From IMG/VR virus record IMGVR_UViG_2548876943_000002, positions 1 through 28,906 of that record: a DNA stretch of 28,906 nucleotides; one strand, 5' to 3'. The DNA is from a virus (lineage: Duplodnaviria; Heunggongvirae; Uroviricota; Caudoviricetes). Both the position numbers and the translations under genes were made by a program. The notes under the pieces were generated by a model. It did no database searches. It saw nothing but the letters and a program-made list of their open reading frames with translations, and had not been told where the DNA came from. This document shows, piece after piece, positions 2,392-24,896 of the stretch (positions are counted from its first letter, which is position 1; each line of letters starts with the position of its first letter).

Positions 2392-2466
2392 GGGTCAGTC
2401 GTATAAAGGTCATTACGGAAGGCTGTTAACCTTCTTATCGTGGTTCGAGTCCACGCTGTCCCGCCA
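2392..2466 (+). tRNA. tRNA-like gene, anticodon loop CUGUUAA (GUU, Asn-like); imperfect acceptor and D stems
   Basis: Manual fold: acceptor GGGTCAG/CTGTCCC (one T-T mismatch), anticodon stem GAAGG/CCTTC, T arm CGTGG-TTCGAGT-CCACG, discriminator G plus CCA. D stem only 3 bp. Confidence 0.45.
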
Positions 2467-2471
2467 AACAT

Positions 2472-2547
2472 GCTGGTTTAGCTCCAATGGTAGAGCAGTC
2501 GCCTTGTAAGCGAATGGGTAGCGGTTCAAGTCCGTTAACCAGCACCA
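2472..2547 (+). tRNA. tRNA, anticodon UGU (Thr) by manual fold
   Basis: Acceptor GCTGGTT/AACCAGC (7 bp), D arm TAGCTC..GAGCA, anticodon loop CTTGTAA, T loop TTCAAGT, 3' ACCA. One G-A mismatch at the base of the anticodon stem. Confidence 0.6.
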
Positions 2548-5915: not shown

Positions 5916-7324
5916 CCTCGATTAATCCTATCTTTGAACCGTTCATTGAGGCGCATCGCTATAAAGTCGCCAAAGGCGGTCGAGGTAGCGGTAAGTCATG
6001 GGCAATCGCGAGGCTGCTTGTTGAGGCGGCGCGTCGGCAGCCGGTGCGAATCCTCTGTGCTCGTGAACTGCAAAACAGTATCAGCGATTCGGTAATCCGG
6101 TTGCTTGAAGACACCATAGAGCGGGAAGGGTATTCGTCTGAGTTTGAAATTCAGCGTTCCATGATTCGTCATCTCGGAACGAATGCTGAGTTCATGTTCT
6201 ACGGCATCAAAAACAACCCGACGAAGATTAAATCGCTCGAAGGCATTGATATCTGCTGGGTGGAAGAAGCGGAAGCGGTAACGAAGGAATCATGGGATAT
6301 CCTGATACCAACCATCCGCAAGCCGTTTTCCGAAATATGGGTGAGCTTCAACCCTAAGAACATCCTCGACGATACCTATCAGCGATTCGTTGTAAATCCT
6401 CCCGATGATATTTGTCTGCTGACGGTGAACTACACCGACAATCCGCACTTTCCTGAAGTTCTCCGTCTGGAGATGGAAGAGTGTAAACGCAGAAATCCGA
6501 CACTGTATCGTCACATCTGGCTTGGTGAGCCAGTAAGCGCAAGTGATATGGCAATCATCAAACGTGAATGGCTTGAAGCCGCAACCGATGCGCACAAGAA
6601 ACTCGGATGGAAAGCGAAAGGCGCTGTTGTCTCTGCGCATGATCCATCAGATACAGGGCCAGATGCTAAAGGTTATGCATCGCGTCACGGTTCGGTAGTT
6701 AAGCGCATTGCCGAAGGTCTGCTGATGGACATCAACGAGGGGGCTGACTGGGCTACTTCGCTGGCGATTGAAGACGGTGCTGACCACTACTTGTGGGATG
6801 GTGATGGTGTCGGTGCAGGGCTACGCAGACAGACAACGGAAGCGTTCTCCGGTAAGAAAATCACCGCCACGATGTTCAAGGGCAGCGAATCGCCATTTGA
6901 TGAAGATGCACCATATCAGGCTGGAGCATGGGCTGATGAAGTCGTGCAGGGCGACAACGTTCGCACTATTGGCGATGTGTTCCGCAATAAGCGAGCGCAA
7001 TTCTATTACGCGCTGGCTGACAGGTTGTATCTGACATATCGGGCGGTTGTCCACGGTGAGTATGCAGACCCCGACGACATGCTGAGCTTCGACAAAGAAG
7101 CGATAGGCGAGAATATGCTGGAGAAGCTGTTTGCAGAACTGACGCAGATTCAGCGCAAATTCAATAACAACGGGAAGCTGGAGCTTATGACTAAGGTCGA
7201 AATGAAGCAGAAGCTCGGTATTCCATCTCCTAACCTGGCTGATGCGCTGATGATGTGTATGCATTGCCCGGCATTGGTCCGCGAAGAAACTGAAATATAC
7301 GTTCCCTCATCCTCCGGTTGGTAA
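5912..7324 (+). CDS. terL: Terminase large subunit (ATPase/nuclease)
   Basis: 470 aa, the same length as Sf6 gp2 as recalled. Walker A-like KGGRGSGKSWA near the N-terminus and acidic nuclease-domain motifs. Confidence 0.9.
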   Translation: MTSINPIFEPFIEAHRYKVAKGGRGSGKSWAIARLLVEAARRQPVRILCARELQNSISDSVIRLLEDTIEREGYSSEFEIQRSMIRHLGTNAEFMFYGIKNNPTKIKSLEGIDICWVEEAEAVTKESWDILIPTIRKPFSEIWVSFNPKNILDDTYQRFVVNPPDDICLLTVNYTDNPHFPEVLRLEMEECKRRNPTLYRHIWLGEPVSASDMAIIKREWLEAATDAHKKLGWKAKGAVVSAHDPSDTGPDAKGYASRHGSVVKRIAEGLLMDINEGADWATSLAIEDGADHYLWDGDGVGAGLRRQTTEAFSGKKITATMFKGSESPFDEDAPYQAGAWADEVVQGDNVRTIGDVFRNKRAQFYYALADRLYLTYRAVVHGEYADPDDMLSFDKEAIGENMLEKLFAELTQIQRKFNNNGKLELMTKVEMKQKLGIPSPNLADALMMCMHCPALVREETEIYVPSSSGW

Positions 7325-7326
7325 AC

Positions 7327-9453
7327 ATGGCAGAGACATTAGAGAAAAAACATGAGCGGATCATGCTCAGGTTTGACCGCGCCTATTCTCCACAGCAGGA
7401 AGTGCGCGAAAAGTGCATTGAAGCTACGAGGTTTGCTCGTGTCCCCGGAGGTCAATGGGAAGGAGCAACGGCGGCTGGAACTAAGCTTGATGAGCAGTTC
7501 GAGAAGTATCCTAAGTTTGAAATCAATAAGGTAGCAACTGAACTTAACCGCATCATTGCAGAATACCGCAATAACAGAATCACTGTTAAGTTTCGTCCTG
7601 GTGACAGAGAGGCAAGCGAAGAGTTAGCCAATAAATTAAATGGTCTGTTCCGTGCTGACTACGAAGAAACTGATGGCGGTGAGGCTTGCGATAATGCATT
7701 TGACGACGCTGCTACTGGTGGTTTCGGTTGCTTCCGTTTGACGTCGATGCTGGTCAATGAATACGACCCCATGGACGATCGTCAGCGTATTGCTATTGAA
7801 CCAATATACGACCCGTCGCGCTCTGTGTGGTTTGACCCTGACGCTAAGAAGTACGACAAATCTGACGCGTTGTGGGCGTTCTGCATGTATTCGTTGTCAC
7901 CTGAAAAATATGAGGCTGAATACGGAAAGAAACCTCCTGCTTCACTGGATGTAACGTCTATTACCAGTTGGGAATATGACTGGTTTGATGCAGATGTTAT
8001 TTACATAGCGAAGTATTACGAAGTTCGTAAAGAGTCTGTTGACGTCATCAGTTATCGACATCCAATCACTGGAGAGATTGCAACATACGACAGTGATCAG
8101 GTCGAAGATATTGAAGATGAATTGGCAATAGCTGGATTTCAGGAAGTTGCAAGGCGCTCAGTGAAGCGACGTCGTGTGTATGTATCAGTAGTGGATGGTG
8201 ATGGTTTCCTTGAGAAACCTAGACGTATCCCTGGTGAGCATATCCCCCTCATCCCGGTTTATGGAAAACGCTGGTTCATTGATGACATTGAGCGTGTCGA
8301 AGGGCACATTGCAAAAGCAATGGATCCACAGCGTTTGTACAACATTCAGGTTTCAATGCTGGCTGATACTGCAGCGCAAGACCCCGGTCAGATACCTATA
8401 GTTGGCATGGAGCAAATTCGTGGACTTGAGAAGCACTGGGAGGCTCGCAACAAGAAACGCCCAGCGTTCTTGCCGTTGCGCGAAGTGAGAGATAAATCTG
8501 GCAACATTATCGCTGGAGCTACCCCGGCAGGATATACACAGCCTGCGGTTATGAATCAGGCATTGGCTGCATTACTACAGCAAACCAGTGCAGATATTCA
8601 GGAGGTTACAGGCGGCAGTCAGGCCATGCAGCAGATGCCAAGTAATATTGCTCAGGAAACGGTTAACAACTTGATGAACAGAGCAGATATGGCTTCGTTT
8701 ATCTATCTGGACAATATGGCGAAAAGTCTTAAACGCGCTGGTGAAATATGGCTGTCAATGGCGCGTGAAGTGTACGGTTCAGAGCGTGAAGTGCGCATCG
8801 TTAACGAAGATGGAAGTGATGATATCGCTGTCCTGAGCGCACAGGTTGTTGACAGGCAAACAGGGGCTGTTGTTGCGTTAAATGACCTTTCTGTCGGTCG
8901 ATACGATGTGACGGTTGATGTTGGACCAAGCTACACATCACGACGTGATGCAACGGTTTCTGTACTGACAAATGTCCTTAGCTCTATGCTTCCAACAGAC
9001 CCAATGCGCCCGGCAATTCAGGGTATTATTCTGGACAATATCGATGGCGAAGGCCTTGATGACTTCAAAGAGTACAACCGAAACCAACTGTTGATATCTG
9101 GTATTGCAAAACCACGCAATGAGAAAGAGCAGCAGATTGTTCAACAGGCGCAAATGGCAGCACAAAGCCAGCCAAATCCTGAAATGGTTCTCGCTCAGGC
9201 GCAAATGGTAGCAGCGCAGGCAGAAGCGCAAAAAGCAACTAACGAAACTGCTCAAACTCAAATCAAAGCATTTACTGCCCAGCAGGATGCGATGGAGAGT
9301 CAGGCAAACACTGTCTATAAACTGGCTCAAGCAAGAAACATCGATGACAAAGCGGTGATGGAGGCAATACGCCTTCTGAAAGATGTCGCCGAGTCACAAC
9401 AACAGCAATTCCAGTCACCACCACAGTCACCGGCAGACTTAATGCCGAGTTAA
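7327..9453 (+). CDS. Portal protein (P22 gp1/Sf6 gp3-like)
   Basis: About 708 aa after terL. Q/A-rich C-terminal barrel segment typical of P22-like portals. ATG at 7327 chosen over the track's non-ATG start at 7318. Confidence 0.85.
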   Translation: MAETLEKKHERIMLRFDRAYSPQQEVREKCIEATRFARVPGGQWEGATAAGTKLDEQFEKYPKFEINKVATELNRIIAEYRNNRITVKFRPGDREASEELANKLNGLFRADYEETDGGEACDNAFDDAATGGFGCFRLTSMLVNEYDPMDDRQRIAIEPIYDPSRSVWFDPDAKKYDKSDALWAFCMYSLSPEKYEAEYGKKPPASLDVTSITSWEYDWFDADVIYIAKYYEVRKESVDVISYRHPITGEIATYDSDQVEDIEDELAIAGFQEVARRSVKRRRVYVSVVDGDGFLEKPRRIPGEHIPLIPVYGKRWFIDDIERVEGHIAKAMDPQRLYNIQVSMLADTAAQDPGQIPIVGMEQIRGLEKHWEARNKKRPAFLPLREVRDKSGNIIAGATPAGYTQPAVMNQALAALLQQTSADIQEVTGGSQAMQQMPSNIAQETVNNLMNRADMASFIYLDNMAKSLKRAGEIWLSMAREVYGSEREVRIVNEDGSDDIAVLSAQVVDRQTGAVVALNDLSVGRYDVTVDVGPSYTSRRDATVSVLTNVLSSMLPTDPMRPAIQGIILDNIDGEGLDDFKEYNRNQLLISGIAKPRNEKEQQIVQQAQMAAQSQPNPEMVLAQAQMVAAQAEAQKATNETAQTQIKAFTAQQDAMESQANTVYKLAQARNIDDKAVMEAIRLLKDVAESQQQQFQSPPQSPADLMPS

Positions 9454-18975: not shown

Positions 18976-19305
18976 CTATTTAATTCTCTTTTCAATGGCT
19001 GCAATTATTGCTTTTCCTGATGTTTCAGGAGATTTTGTAGCCATATAAGACGAAAAAATCATGTCGGTCATTCTTTCATAACTTACTATTTCCCACTTAG
19101 CCAATGCATGGGACAGTTTGTAGTTGTCATCAGTTAGTGCCCTTATGGAATTTTTTAAGTGTTTATTCTCTTCAGTTAATCGCGCAATTTTTGTATCAAT
19201 TTCATGTGAGCGATCTAATTCCTTAACCTGTTTCTTGAGGGCAGCTAACCCTGCATATAGTACGCAACAGGATATCCCAAGAGCGAGTACTACTATTTCT
19301 AACAC
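18976..19305 (-). CDS. Small membrane-anchored coiled-coil protein (109 aa); candidate superinfection-exclusion or accessory protein
   Basis: Minus-strand ORF convergent with gp16-like. N-terminal hydrophobic segment (LEIVVLALGISCCVLYAGLAAL) then charged heptad-like region. Sits where P22 carries sieA, but shows no recognisable similarity. Confidence 0.5.
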   Translation of the reverse strand: MLEIVVLALGISCCVLYAGLAALKKQVKELDRSHEIDTKIARLTEENKHLKNSIRALTDDNYKLSHALAKWEIVSYERMTDMIFSSYMATKSPETSGKAIIAAIEKRIK

Positions 19306-19679: not shown

Positions 19680-20123
19680 ATGCTTACTTGTTTTGATGTC
19701 GCCGACTACTTCCTGTCGCGGTGTGACGAGGATAGCGGTGACACAATCTCTAATTTAAAATTACAAAAGCTTGTTTACTATGCTCAGGGTTTTTCATTGG
19801 CGTTGCTTGGCGAGCCTCTTTTTCAGAATAAGATGGAAGCTTGGATGCATGGCCCTGTTGTCCCTGAGCTTTATCGCCGTTATAAACAATATGGTAATGG
19901 CGCTATCCCTTCTCCAGAGTCTTTTGATGCTGAAAAATTCAGCGAAGAACAGTTAGAGCTATTAGAAGAAGTCTGGGATGTTTTTGGGCAATTTTCTGCC
20001 TGGAAACTGAGGAACATGACACACGAAGAGTCACCATGGAGATCAAACTATATTGAGGGTGTTGGTGGTTCTGAAATTAGCTCTAAGGAGATGGCAGAGT
20101 ACTTTGCAACTCGGATTAACTAA
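19680..20123 (+). CDS. Panacea/DUF4065 (SocA/GepA-like) domain protein; candidate PanA-type antitoxin
   Basis: Motif NLKLQKLVYYAQGFSLALLGEPLFQNKMEAWMHGPVVPELY resembles the DUF4065 (PF13274) signature as recalled. GGAGG RBS 8 nt upstream of ATG 19680 (track's non-ATG start at 19674 rejected). AT-rich moron context. Confidence 0.6.
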   Translation: MLTCFDVADYFLSRCDEDSGDTISNLKLQKLVYYAQGFSLALLGEPLFQNKMEAWMHGPVVPELYRRYKQYGNGAIPSPESFDAEKFSEEQLELLEEVWDVFGQFSAWKLRNMTHEESPWRSNYIEGVGGSEISSKEMAEYFATRIN

Positions 20124-20127
20124 CGAG

Positions 20128-20547
20128 ATGGCAAGAAAATCTAAAAGGATTATCCCCCCTGCTGAATCTACAGGTAAGTTAAAGTTAGGGCCGCAGTCAG
20201 GGGGGAATTCAGATCAAAAGAAACCGAAATTTTCATTCTGTTACATCCAAAGCTCTCACTGCATAACGAAATGCCAAAAAGATGAGAAAGCTGGCTTAGC
20301 TGATAAATTATACAGATTAAGTCAACTAACATGGGCAGAGATTAAGCAGCAAGGTAGGCATAAGCTTGGATTTGAGAAGATTGCAAGGGGTGCAATTAAA
20401 GCAGGTATCCCCAGTCATATAACGGAAGACGTAGATCATTTCTTGGCTTTTAGATTTGATGATTTGAAAGCCATGGTTGGTTATCGTCTTGGATCGACAT
20501 TTTTTGTTATATGGCTTGATAGAGAGTTCAACCTATACAAGCACTAA
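20128..20547 (+). CDS. Uncharacterised 139-aa protein coupled to the Panacea-domain gene; candidate toxin/effector partner
   Basis: Starts 4 nt after the upstream stop. Basic N-terminus (MARKSKRIIPP...), C-terminus GYRLGSTFFVIWLDREFNLYKH. No family recognised. Followed by a strong hairpin terminator. Confidence 0.5.
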   Translation: MARKSKRIIPPAESTGKLKLGPQSGGNSDQKKPKFSFCYIQSSHCITKCQKDEKAGLADKLYRLSQLTWAEIKQQGRHKLGFEKIARGAIKAGIPSHITEDVDHFLAFRFDDLKAMVGYRLGSTFFVIWLDREFNLYKH

Positions 20548-21063: not shown

Positions 21064-21131
21064 AGTGGAAGCCCCAACTGCGGGAACAGTCAGGGCTTCG
21101 GTTGTCAGTAAATCCGTGGAGAAAAACCAAC
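21064..21131 (-). ncRNA. sar: Expected location of sar-like antisense RNA (arc-ant intercistronic region); inferred by position only
   Basis: In P22 a small antisense RNA (sar) is transcribed leftward across the ant RBS. Here the arc-ant spacer contains an imperfect hairpin (GAAGCCC...GGGCTTC). Exact ends not determinable. Confidence 0.3.
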
Positions 21132-22034
21132 ATGAATAGTATAGCAATTTTAGAAGCAGTGAACACCTCTTACGTACCATTCAACGGTCAGCAAATTATC
21201 ACCGCCATGGCTGCCGGAGTTGCATACGTTGCGATGAAGCCAATCGTTGAAAACCTTGGAATGAGTTGGGGTACTCAGCAACAAAAACTTATGAAACAAC
21301 TAGATAAGTTCAACTGTATTCATATGAATATGGTTGCCGCTGATGGGAAGCTTCGTAAGCTACTCTGCCTTCCTTTGAAGAAGTTAAATGGATGGCTGTT
21401 CAGCATCAACCCTGAGAAAGTTCGAGCTGACATCCGCGATAAACTGATTCAGTACCAGGAAGAATGCTTTACTGTACTGCATGACTACTGGACAAAGGGA
21501 AAGGCAGAAAATGCACGTAAGAAAACATCTGTTGATGACAGGACTCCGCTTCGTGATGCTGTAAATATGCTAGTCAGCAAAAAGCATCTAATGTACCCAG
21601 AAGCTTACGCAATGATTCATCAGCGTTTCAATGTGGAAAGTATTGAAGAGCTTGATGCATCTCAGATACCGCAAGCCGTAGAGTACATCCACAGGGTAGT
21701 GCTTGAAGGTGAGTTCATCGGCAAACAAGAGAAGAAAACCAACGAGCTTTCTGCAAAAGAAGCAAGCAGCCTTGTATGGCTATGGGATTATGCCAACCGC
21801 TCACAGGCATTATTCCGCGAACTGTATCCGGCGCTGAAACAAATTCAATCGAACTATTCCGGCAGATGTCATGACTGCGGTTATGAGTTCTCCCGTATTA
21901 TCGATATAGCGAGAGACGTTTTAATCAATCACTCACGAGATGTTGATATCAATGAGCCAGACGGACCAACGAATCTTTCCGCATGGATGAGACTTAAGAA
22001 TAAAGAATTACCTCCTTCAGTACATAACTACTGA
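21132..22034 (+). CDS. ant: Antirepressor Ant
   Basis: 300 aa; N-terminus [49 protein letters not shown] matches P22 Ant as recalled. ATG 21132 chosen over the track start at 21102. Confidence 0.85.
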
Positions 22035-22052
22035 CAGATAACCAACGCAACG

Positions 22053-22077
22053 ACCCAGCTTCGGCTGGGTTTTTTTA
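22053..22077 (+). terminator. Intrinsic terminator after ant (CCCAGC-TTCG-GCTGGG then TTTTTTT)
   Basis: Hairpin plus T-run read from sequence. Confidence 0.75.
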
Positions 22078-22134
22078 TGCCCAAAATTCACCGTAGCCAT
22101 GCTGCGGCGATTCCTTGTATCTGGAGCAAATTAA

Positions 22135-24165
22135 ATGACAGATTCAATAAATGCCAATGTTGTAGTAAGTATGCCATCGCAACTCTTCACTATGGCTCGT
22201 TCTTTTAAAGCCGTAGCCAATGGTAAAATTTATATTGGTAAAATTGACACTGACCCGGTAAATCCAGAAAACCAGATTCAGGTTTATGTGGAGAACGAAG
22301 ACGGTTCTCACGTTCCTGTTTCGCAACCAATCATCATTAACGCTGCTGGATATCCGGTATATAACGGACAGATTGCCAAGTTTGTAACTGTGCAAGGCCA
22401 TTCTATGGCTGTTTATGATGCGTACGGTGTGCAGCAGTTCTATTTTCCGAATGTGCTGAAGTATGATCCAGATCAGTTCTCCATAGATTTCCCTCAGCAA
22501 CTTTCTCAATTAGGGTTATATGTAAATGATGACAGCAAGGGAGATGCAATGATAGGTGTTAAGCAGCCTATCACTGGGTCAATTCATCGTACACAGCACG
22601 ATGTAAACTATGAAAGAATTAGCGCTTTTGACCTTGGAGTGAAGGGGGATGGAGTTACTGATGATGTAACTGCAATTAGAGAAGCACTAATCACTGCAGC
22701 AACAGCAAGACGTTCCATCCATTTCCCTGATGGCGTCTATTTATGCAGTGACTTTTTTTCAATACCAAGCCACTCAAGGATCTATTGTGACCCCGGTGCA
22801 GTTTTTAAACTTACAGGTAGTACTAGCCTTGGTGGATTCGCTGTAACAGGCCTCAATAATCAGGTGCAGACAGAGCTATGTGAAGATGTTGTTACGTATA
22901 ACATGACGCTTGATTGCAATAAAATATCAGGTGAAAACGGAATGAATGGCGTGACATGTAGGAACATACGTCACTACAACCTTACAGTCATTAATACTCT
23001 TCACAACGCAGAATCAAGAGGAGGAAGGGCCTTTCAATGCGAAGGGGGGATTTCATCTGATGTCCATGTTTTTAACTTTGTAATTAAAAATTGCTCTATA
23101 GGTGTAAATTATCAAGGGCTACCAGATGCATCTCAAAAGGTTGCAGCATTCAGCTTTCACGGTGTAGCAATGGAGAACGTAGATGTTCCGTTCTGTATTT
23201 ATTCACAAATATCTAACCCTGAGTCAAACACACCAGAAATTATGAGTGTAGCTGCGTTTGATGTAAGTTGCCATAACTGCGGAAAAATCACTGGTGGATA
23301 TGGTGATCAACTTGGTGCTGGAATAATATGTGGCGATAGAGGTTATGGGCTATTTATAGATGGTATTCGAGTGGTTAACGAATCATCGTATGGAGGGATT
23401 GGAGCTTTTATAAGGGGGCAAATGTTTGGCGTATCAATAAACAACGCTGACATTTATTGCATTTACGCTGTTTCAGTAATAGATCATAACAAGATAGGGT
23501 TTGATGACGCCGCTGTTAATACAGTTCCTTCAAGCGTTAGAGTTAGAAATTTAAATGTATCAAGTAATTTGGATTTTATAGTTCGAGCCCCTGACTCTTC
23601 GGCTATTGGTAACTCAACAGTTGACGTGTCTGTAAACATAACAAGAGCATCACTAAATCAATTATTTGATTCTGGCGCAGGAGGAAGCGCTTCCGCAGTT
23701 ATTAATATATCTGACTCTTTGACTGGTAAGTCATCAGGATTTAGAACGTTAAAAAATATTTTTGATGCTGGTAATTCTATTGGTTTACTATCTAGATATG
23801 ATGCTGGCGGAAGCTGGGTCCCAATAGACGGTAGTGGTGCAGGAATTGCAATATTATTAACAGGACAGCAAAAATATACAAAAGCAGGTGAGGTTGTTCA
23901 CTTTTATATGAACATCATATACCCAGTGAACGATAACACAAACGACGCTGTTATCTCTGGATTGCCTTTTAACTCTGTACCGTTTGTTTCTCAATTTGCA
24001 GGAGCGGCATCAATAGCGATTAAGTCATCATCAATGTTATCAACTGTAGGGATTCTTCCTGGTGGTGATAAGCTGAAATTCTATGGTACAACTGGTGCCC
24101 CACTAACTAACAGAGACATGTCAGGCGTTAGTGTTGCTGTTTTCGGATCATATATTTCAGAATAG
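22135..24165 (+). CDS. Tailspike protein: P22-like N-terminal head-binding domain fused to a divergent beta-helix (pectate-lyase-like) receptor-binding/depolymerase domain
   Basis: N-terminal about 115 aa (…[39 protein letters not shown]…[10 protein letters not shown]) matches the P22 gp9 head-binding domain as recalled. Downstream [21 protein letters not shown] resembles Pectate_lyase_3-type beta-helix motifs. Lower GC in the 3' two-thirds. Confidence 0.85.
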
Positions 24166-24204
24166 AAGAAAAATATATTTAAATTGGTGCAAAAACTTGG
24201 ACGC

Positions 24205-24236
24205 ACAAAGCTTTGTACTGGATTACAAAGCTTTGT
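24205..24236. repeat. Two perfect 12-bp palindromes ACAAAGCTTTGT with 20-bp centre-to-centre spacing, about 40 bp downstream of the tailspike stop
   Basis: Read directly from sequence at 24205-24216 and 24225-24236. Confidence 0.8.
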
Positions 24237-24896
24237 GTCATTCGATAGTTAAGGTGGTCACTCCACCTTTTCATCAATCCAGTCAGCCCACCATTGCATC
24301 ATTTCTCTGCACTTAATGTAGCGGATGCCTCACTATCACATAGTGATGGTTCATTACTGCTTTGTAGAATGGATAGAGAACTGAGGATAAAAAGATATCC
24401 CAAAACCCCAAAATCTCATCTTTAGGATTGCAGAAAGGGAGGCGTGAACAGATACCTGCGCATGAAGACGGAACCAGTCCAGATGTGATATTTGTGGTGA
24501 TCACATACATCATCAACGATGCTCGTTATGGTGAGTTTGATGACTACCCGCTGAAGTGAAAATAGTGTTGTGTACCAAATTGCGTACCAAACTAAAATCA
24601 CAAATCATGAAACCCTTGTTCATGGCGGTTCTCAGGGGTATTGCGCGTAATCGTGAAACAAAAAGGTAGATTGTTGCTTACCGTCATTCATCATTAGGTT
24701 AAATCCGTTATTTCTGCTGTCTGCCAGAGTATCAAATATCACCGTGCTAATCAGCTTTAGCGCAACAATTTGACAGCGAGTGGCAACAGATCATGTCAGA
24801 TAAAAATGAGAGAGTAGTCACATTTTCTTGCACTTTATTCCAGCCAGTTCATAAGTATTTCCGTAAAAAGAACAGCTATTTGAAACTCCTGAGGGT

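Follow-up and report, generated by a model that had tools for sequence, protein, structure and literature searches.

A mosaic P22-type tailspike with an O145-associated receptor-binding module in a prophage of Escherichia coli

Background

The characterised tailspikes of the P22 family (P22, Sf6 and HK620) are, to our knowledge, all endoglycosidases. A receptor-binding protein (RBP) of a P22-like prophage, FHI58_Prophage_RBP (LM995999.1, Lederbergvirus), has been listed under serogroup O145 of E. coli and grouped with the RBPs of phages Ro145c2YLVW and P818 (Virol J 2023; PMC10408124). In the same paper CFSAN004176 appears as one of the O145 strains that have a prophage of this kind, and its RBP is likewise placed under O145. 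Pas et al. (2023) define an O145 RBP subtype by a minimum of 30% identity to an RBP validated on O145, covering 60% or more of the receptor-binding domain (RBD). The RBD of FHI58 was later fused to an R2 tailocin anchor (Antibiotics 2025; PMC11762384), and the product, R2-O145-b, cleared and killed the O145 strain A11-1581 with a 4.6-log reduction; killing by R2-O145 was reported for one O145 strain only, and in the growth-curve assay of R2-O145-b the tailocin-scaffold control had an effect as well (PMC11762384).

Lytic phages provide a further point of comparison, as Ro145clw, the sister phage of Ro145c2YLVW, has a narrow, O145-specific host range (PMC6627115). The O145 O-antigen contains Neu5Ac and an L-FucNAm-(alpha1->3)-GlcNAc linkage (PMC7685785). 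In Salmonella, O48 is the only serogroup with sialic acid in the O-antigen, the C-4 of Neu5Ac being substituted by GlcNAc (PMC9631793).

Results

The tailspike gene and its prophage

The window, by which we mean the whole stretch of 28,906 nucleotides that was analysed, encodes at 22135-24165 a mosaic P22-type tailspike of a P22-like (Lederbergvirus-type) prophage in E. coli. The gene, its expression signals and its neighbours in the P22-type immI region are as follows.

22135..24165, plus strand: tailspike gene, 676 codons plus stop (ORF list)
22123..22126, plus strand: GGAG ribosome-binding site, 8 nt 5' of the tailspike ATG, read from the sequence
22052..22071, plus strand: hairpin with a T-run, resembling a terminator, in the gap that separates ant from the tailspike gene, a consensus match only
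21102..22034, plus strand: antirepressor (Ant) gene, the immediate upstream neighbour (Pfam P22_AR_N E=8e-45, P22_AR_C E=2e-27)
21064..21131, minus strand: sar antisense RNA of the immI region, just upstream of the tailspike (Rfam RF00262, 91.5 bits vs a gathering score of 43)
19680..20547, plus strand: two-gene cassette in the immI region (Pfam, PADLOC)

The open reading frame is uninterrupted from its ATG start over 676 amino acids, and 15 draft E. coli contigs encode exactly this 676-residue protein, there too next to dacD. The hairpin has an 8-pair stem with 5 GC pairs, followed by TTTTTTAT. An antisense frame of 121 amino acids at 22144-22509 (minus strand) was dismissed as spurious, lying wholly within the head-binding coding region.

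Upstream of the tailspike gene lie the P22-type immI neighbours sar RNA, Mnt, Arc and Ant, so that the gene stands at the end of the late region, 3' of mnt, arc, ant and sar, which is the tailspike position of P22-like phages. It is preceded in the window by long ORFs on the same strand that make up a full late-operon set, among them one for a gp20-like injection protein (Pfam Inj_translocase) further upstream. We take the order and sizes of these ORFs to be those of a P22-like late operon, gp20 being the only one verified with Pfam. The same gene layout was found in the prophages of strains LR-24 and CFSAN004176.

The tailspike gene is followed by 730 non-coding bases and then by dacD, sbmC and yeeA. 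E. coli LR-24 has the same prophage, flanked by sbcB on the integrase side and by dacD on the other, and we read the prophage of the window as inserted between these two genes as well. Both the end of the prophage (attR) and the promoter of dacD must lie in the non-coding stretch (24166-24896, 40% GC, from the tailspike stop to dacD). When an att repeat was sought by comparing the sbcB-int region of LR-24 with 24166-24896 of the window, only a 13-mer was found in common, possibly by chance.

Several other elements of the prophage were recorded. In the two-gene cassette, gene 1 encodes a SocA/Panacea antitoxin-domain protein of 147 amino acids (Pfam E=1.9e-24) and gene 2 is a 139-aa ORF matching no Pfam family, with a weak PADLOC match to NsnC (E=5.9e-6); the cassette may represent a moron of the toxin-antitoxin or defence type. 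The phage also carries two tRNA genes, tRNA-Asn(GTT) and tRNA-Thr(TGT), which lie 5 nt apart at 2392-2547 (plus strand), inside the prophage and upstream of the lysis and packaging genes. A 109-aa ORF on the opposite strand (18976-19305, minus) separates the gp16-like gene from the immI genes; its annotation in related prophages is hypothetical protein, and it belongs to no Pfam family and gave only an insignificant PADLOC match (E=0.0014).

A common head-binding domain and the position of the junction

The protein is a mosaic of more than two pieces, namely an anchor, an Sf6-like neck, a beta-helix and a C-terminal module, with a recombination junction between the first two.

22144..22476, plus strand: head-binding (virion-anchor) domain, residues 4-114 (PF09008)
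22450..22485, no strand: recombination junction where the YDPDQF motif (residues 110-115) ends, nt ~316-351 of the gene
22480..22635, plus strand: neck/linker, residues 116-167 (Sf6 tailspike homology)
22636..23799, plus strand: receptor-binding and presumably catalytic module, residues 168-555, predicted to fold as a right-handed parallel beta-helix
23800..24162, plus strand: C-terminal domain, residues ~556-676, modelled as all-beta and distributed as a module of its own

As in other P22-like tailspikes, the N-terminus consists of the Pfam Head_binding domain (PF09008, residues 4-114, E=5.1e-65, 217 bits), and its matches in the PDB are the N-terminal domains of the Sf6 and P22 tailspikes. 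The P22 tailspike chains align only up to residues ~122-126 (2xc1_A, E=2.8e-49). The sequence-only reading, which had taken the first ~115 residues for the head-binding domain of P22 gp9 and the remainder for something unrelated to the P22 endorhamnosidase, was thus correct on both counts, the sequence match in the PDB search having ended by residue ~122. The likeness to P22 gp9 and HK620 consists in this domain (P22, E=3e-49; HK620, 92% nucleotide identity over nt 1-345) and in the overall tailspike fold class, whereas past residue ~122 there is no sequence similarity and the O-antigen substrates differ.

The first ~344 nt of the gene are present at 90-96% identity in 1,128 of 5,426 complete E. 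coli genomes and are common to many phages, including HK620, CUS-3 and Sf6. Past this point only four of the 5,426 genomes match, and megablast matches to other tailspikes stop at nt 342-351. Polymorphism is distributed in the same manner. The differences to the LR-24 gene fall in nt 10-315 in 19 of 21 cases (binomial p=6e-14) and those to the CFSAN004176 gene in 30 of 33 (p=2e-21); the anchor differs by 6-9%, and the remaining 1,716 nt are 99.8-99.9% identical to both. Finally, the tailspike of E. coli NC22 is identical at 113 of 114 positions over residues 1-114 and unrelated after YDPDQ. This strain (NZ_CP109953.1; locus L010, 3001-5007) is O145-wzy-positive and has its P22-like prophage at argW. 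The junction is therefore placed at about nt 316-351 of the gene by three independent lines of sequence comparison.

Base composition does not mark this position. The sequence was said to become visibly AT-rich from about 22500, and this was not borne out, as GC is 41.4% in nt 1-345 of the gene and 39.9% in the rest (Fisher p=0.63) and the best single change point within the gene was equalled in 337 of 500 codon shuffles. Third-position GC alone drops across the boundary (38% to 28%, p=0.033). GC stands at 40.2% in the whole gene (GC3 30%) and at 42.9% in the preceding immI region (18.5-22.1 kb), both AT-richer than the virion genes (48.5%), so that the drop in composition begins about 3.5 kb before the gene and not at the domain boundary; the low-GC stretch starts at ~18.5 kb, where the immI region begins. 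A GC step, significant neither at the domain boundary nor elsewhere in the gene, was accordingly rejected as evidence for the junction. Of the proposal that a recombination junction lies at the domain boundary, the location stands, on homology, polymorphism and NC22, and the compositional argument falls. It is the distribution of homology and of polymorphism that makes the junction real.

Neck, beta-helix and C-terminal module

Beyond the anchor, the relationship to Sf6 continues for some distance and then fades. A phmmer match to Sf6 gp14 (7sg7_A) spans residues 1-190 (E=1e-88), an hhalign alignment reaches residue ~254 (Sf6 residue 259), and the nucleotide identity to Sf6 in the neck declines from 67% to 55% over nt 361-540. 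The neck motif is shared by RBD relatives with other anchors (PF18668, PF03906 and PF08400).

The body of the protein matches PF12708 (Pect-lyase_RHGA_epim, formerly pectate lyase 3) over residues 163-328 with E=4.9e-10 and 40 bits, above the gathering cut-off of 27; the motif region earlier described as pectate-lyase-3-like lies within this match, which bears the description out. An AlphaFold2 (AF2) monomer model was confident over residues 160-676, with block-mean pLDDT mostly above 90, and shows a long beta-helix that leads into a C-terminal domain rich in beta structure, so that a C-terminal beta-helix RBD, as expected of a P22-like tailspike, is predicted. Owing to a shallow alignment in that region, the model of the N-terminal part was poor. 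With the whole model, the best Foldseek match was the Sf6 tailspike gp14 (PDB 7sg7, 2vbk), and the beta-helix resembled tailspike depolymerases and glycosidases in fold searches. The likeness to gp14, an endorhamnosidase, lies in the head-binding domain and neck; the beta-helix body, in contrast, is 14-15% identical with a TM of about 0.5, and the substrate is another one. From their spacing, several conserved Asn and Cys residues appear to form a structural ladder of the beta-helix turns.

At residues 551-560 pLDDT falls to 67 and then returns mostly above 90 in a region of beta strands. This is also where two homologs (P0034 and P0036) diverge, from the start of the C-terminal domain at about residue 556. 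In an exhaustive HMMER search a very large number of proteins with no other relationship to the tailspike, many of them of just 130-300 amino acids, matched only residues ~545-675, and the C-terminal ~120 residues account for most of the 1,417 library matches at E<=1e-3. No Pfam model matched these ~120 residues in the Pfam search of the tailspike. They are a widely shuffled tail-fibre tip domain.

Association of the receptor-binding module with O145

Even with sensitive blastn, the RBD DNA was found in only four of the 5,426 complete E. coli genomes. The O145 wzy gene is present in 4/4 of these against 38/5,426 overall (hypergeometric 2e-9), two of the four being near-duplicates. The window itself contains no O-antigen cluster, so that the association with O145 is that of these four RBD-carrying genomes. 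In LR-24 the O-antigen cluster is annotated with O145 wzx/wzy and carries neuB/neuC (sialic acid) and fnlA (FucNAc pathway). The prophages with this RBD occupy two integration sites: that of CFSAN004176 lies at argW/intS, and the rest are found at sbcB-dacD. The match between prophage RBD and host O-type is not absolute, since NC22 is O145-wzy-positive and has an unrelated RBD.

In the phage collection, the only full-length relatives of the RBD were the tail proteins of Ro145c2YLVW, Ro145clw and P818, all isolated on O145. The RBP of Ro145c2YLVW (Kagunavirus) is 36% identical over 527 aa, or 91% of the RBD (E=2e-102), and on the sequence definition of the O145 RBP subtype the protein belongs to it both by this comparison and by that with FHI58. 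In these lytic phages (Ro145c2YLVW and Ro145clw, Kagunavirus; P818, Nouzillyvirus) homology extends from residue 168 to the C-terminus. They differ from the prophage protein in having unrelated N-terminal anchors and siphovirus-type tails, with identity of only 36%.

Residues 119-676 of the window protein were aligned with the R2-O145 RBD as printed in Supplementary Table S1 of PMC11762384, and 0 mismatches were found over 556 aligned residues. The printed sequence lacks V351 (23185-23187) and G531 (23725-23727) in both printed copies. As every homolog has a residue between D350 and P352, the absence of V351 is probably a text-extraction loss, and V351 and G531 together were probably lost in the conversion from PDF to text. 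The FHI58 prophage RBP has the same genus-type anchor, and its published serogroup is that given by our genome survey. The glycan specificity had initially been called unknown; given that this RBD is identical to one assigned to O145 in print, that statement no longer applies. The expectation that the RBD sets the O-antigen recognised has fared better, with O145 wzy in all four genomes and an O145 strain killed by the grafted module.

Among the Salmonella relatives of the RBD, all those with a serovar name are O48. The tailspike of S. enterica houtenae 48:g,z51:- is 82% identical in the RBD and 83% over the full length, and that of S. enterica salamae 48:d:z6 62% and 68%, respectively. These tailspikes of P22-like prophages share the full-length architecture; at the nucleotide level they are most alike in the neck and the first rungs (91-95% identity), with a fall to 69-75% in the distal RBD. 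The O145 and Salmonella O48 O-antigens are reportedly closely related (Feng et al. 2005). Our literature search found no paper linking the O145 and Salmonella O48 structures.

The Salmonella O48 tailspike gene is directly followed by an Acyl_transf_3 gene (7180-8121 of loci L011-L013), which the window lacks. By analogy with Sf6, it is likely to encode an O-antigen acetyltransferase. A decayed acyltransferase gene 3' of the window tailspike was considered and rejected, as there was no protein-level remnant. A 51-nt stretch at about 24265-24315 of the window is 88% identical to DNA lying 3' of the Salmonella acyltransferase gene.

Candidate catalytic residues

In 41 homologs with 22-62% identity, E303, N268 and R402 were invariant, and D260, E267 and D401 were at least 90% conserved. 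The acidic residues put forward on the basis of this conservation, all on the plus strand, are:

23041..23043: E303
23335..23337: D401
22912..22914: D260
22933..22935: E267

The RBPs of the lytic O145 phages retain D260, E267, E303 and D401; D512 is not conserved. By analogy with P22, Sf6 and HK620, the protein would be an endoglycosidase with E303 as the key carboxylate, together with D401, D260 or E267. Candidate bonds for the cleavage are Neu5Ac-FucNAm, FucNAm-GlcNAc and GlcNAc-Neu5Ac.

Known enzyme families were compared with the module and none was adopted. As the profile alignment with Sf6 ends at residue ~254, the Sf6 catalytic residues cannot be mapped, and an endorhamnosidase of the Sf6 type was rejected, the E366/D399 region being unalignable; a P22 gp9-type endorhamnosidase domain was rejected because the P22 alignments stop close behind the anchor. 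A polygalacturonase of the GH28 type was set aside since the NTD, GHG and RIK motifs are absent and no PF00295 match was obtained at E<=1; the sole G.DD match in the tailspike, GFDD at residues 455-458, stands apart from any other GH28 motif. For the phage endosialidases (GH58), there was only a sub-threshold End_N_terminal match of 22 residues (13 bits vs 26), and the fold is a beta-helix and not a beta-propeller. The fold neighbours were no guide to mechanism either, the top matches being a generic mix of hydrolases, lyases, epimerases and adhesins; in the fold searches the beta-helix was common to hydrolases, lyases, epimerases and non-enzymatic adhesins.

Discussion

The domain architecture, the position of the junction, the O145 association and the O145 targeting by the tailocin graft are documented here or in print. 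Taken together, the protein is very probably a mosaic tailspike with the O145 O-antigen as its receptor, which it binds and most probably cleaves. By analogy with P22 and Sf6, the N-terminal head-binding domain would dock the spike on the tail hub and the tailspike would work as a homotrimer. The beta-helix module would bind the O145 O-antigen and most probably cleave it, and such cleavage would clear the virion's path to the outer membrane. The widely shared head-binding domain would have been joined just after YDPDQF to an O145-type receptor-binding cassette that moves between phages as one unit. An RBD 99.8-99.9% identical at two integration sites, next to an anchor that differs by 6-9%, points to recent transfer of a working cassette.

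It could be argued that the module recognises O145 without being an endoglycosidase, either by binding only or by altering the polysaccharide in another manner, as in taking O-acetyl groups off the sialic acid. The tailocin result is compatible with this, as killing requires binding only. We nevertheless regard such a protein as unlikely, since domain searches of the tailspike detected no SGNH-type esterase or other non-glycosidase domain, the characterised members of the family (P22, Sf6 and HK620) are endoglycosidases, and an invariant Glu with near-invariant Asp/Glu residues in the 41 homologs fits a conserved active site. That the receptor is some other surface structure, the O145 association merely reflecting shared ancestry of the host strains, is hardly credible: the prophages are integrated at two separate places, an RBD of the same type recurs in unrelated lytic phages isolated on O145, the Salmonella relatives track the chemically related O48 serogroup, and an O145 strain was killed by the grafted RBD.

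Another possibility is that the prophage is defective and the gene, intact though it looks, a mere leftover with no current role for cell or virion. The 730 non-coding nucleotides 3' of the gene and the failure to identify an att repeat agree with this. The reading frame is, however, uninterrupted and preceded by a full set of late-operon ORFs, the RBD has remained 99.8-99.9% identical at two sites despite the divergence of 6-9% in the anchor, and it is functional when expressed as a tailocin. A leftover gene therefore seems rather unlikely, and this question bears on the prophage and not on what the tailspike protein does. For the O145-binding tailspike that we favour, one more specific activity may be named, although it is improbable: the module could be a beta-helix endo-sialidase cutting the internal Neu5Ac-(2->3)-L-FucNAm bond of the O145/O48 polysaccharide. 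If this were true, its fold would be unlike that of the known beta-propeller phage endosialidases.

The tailspike is a real feature but an ordinary one, and its receptor-binding module is already known in print; as modular tailspikes are textbook matter and this module has been both catalogued and engineered, little is new. Given the close relatives in Salmonella O48 prophages, the cassette might act across genera on both sialylated O-antigens. A paper of December 2025 still reported that no satisfactory O145 tailspike candidate had been found (PMC12737597). The practical value of the module lies in its use as an O145-targeting part for the detection or biocontrol of O145 Shiga-toxin-producing E. 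coli.
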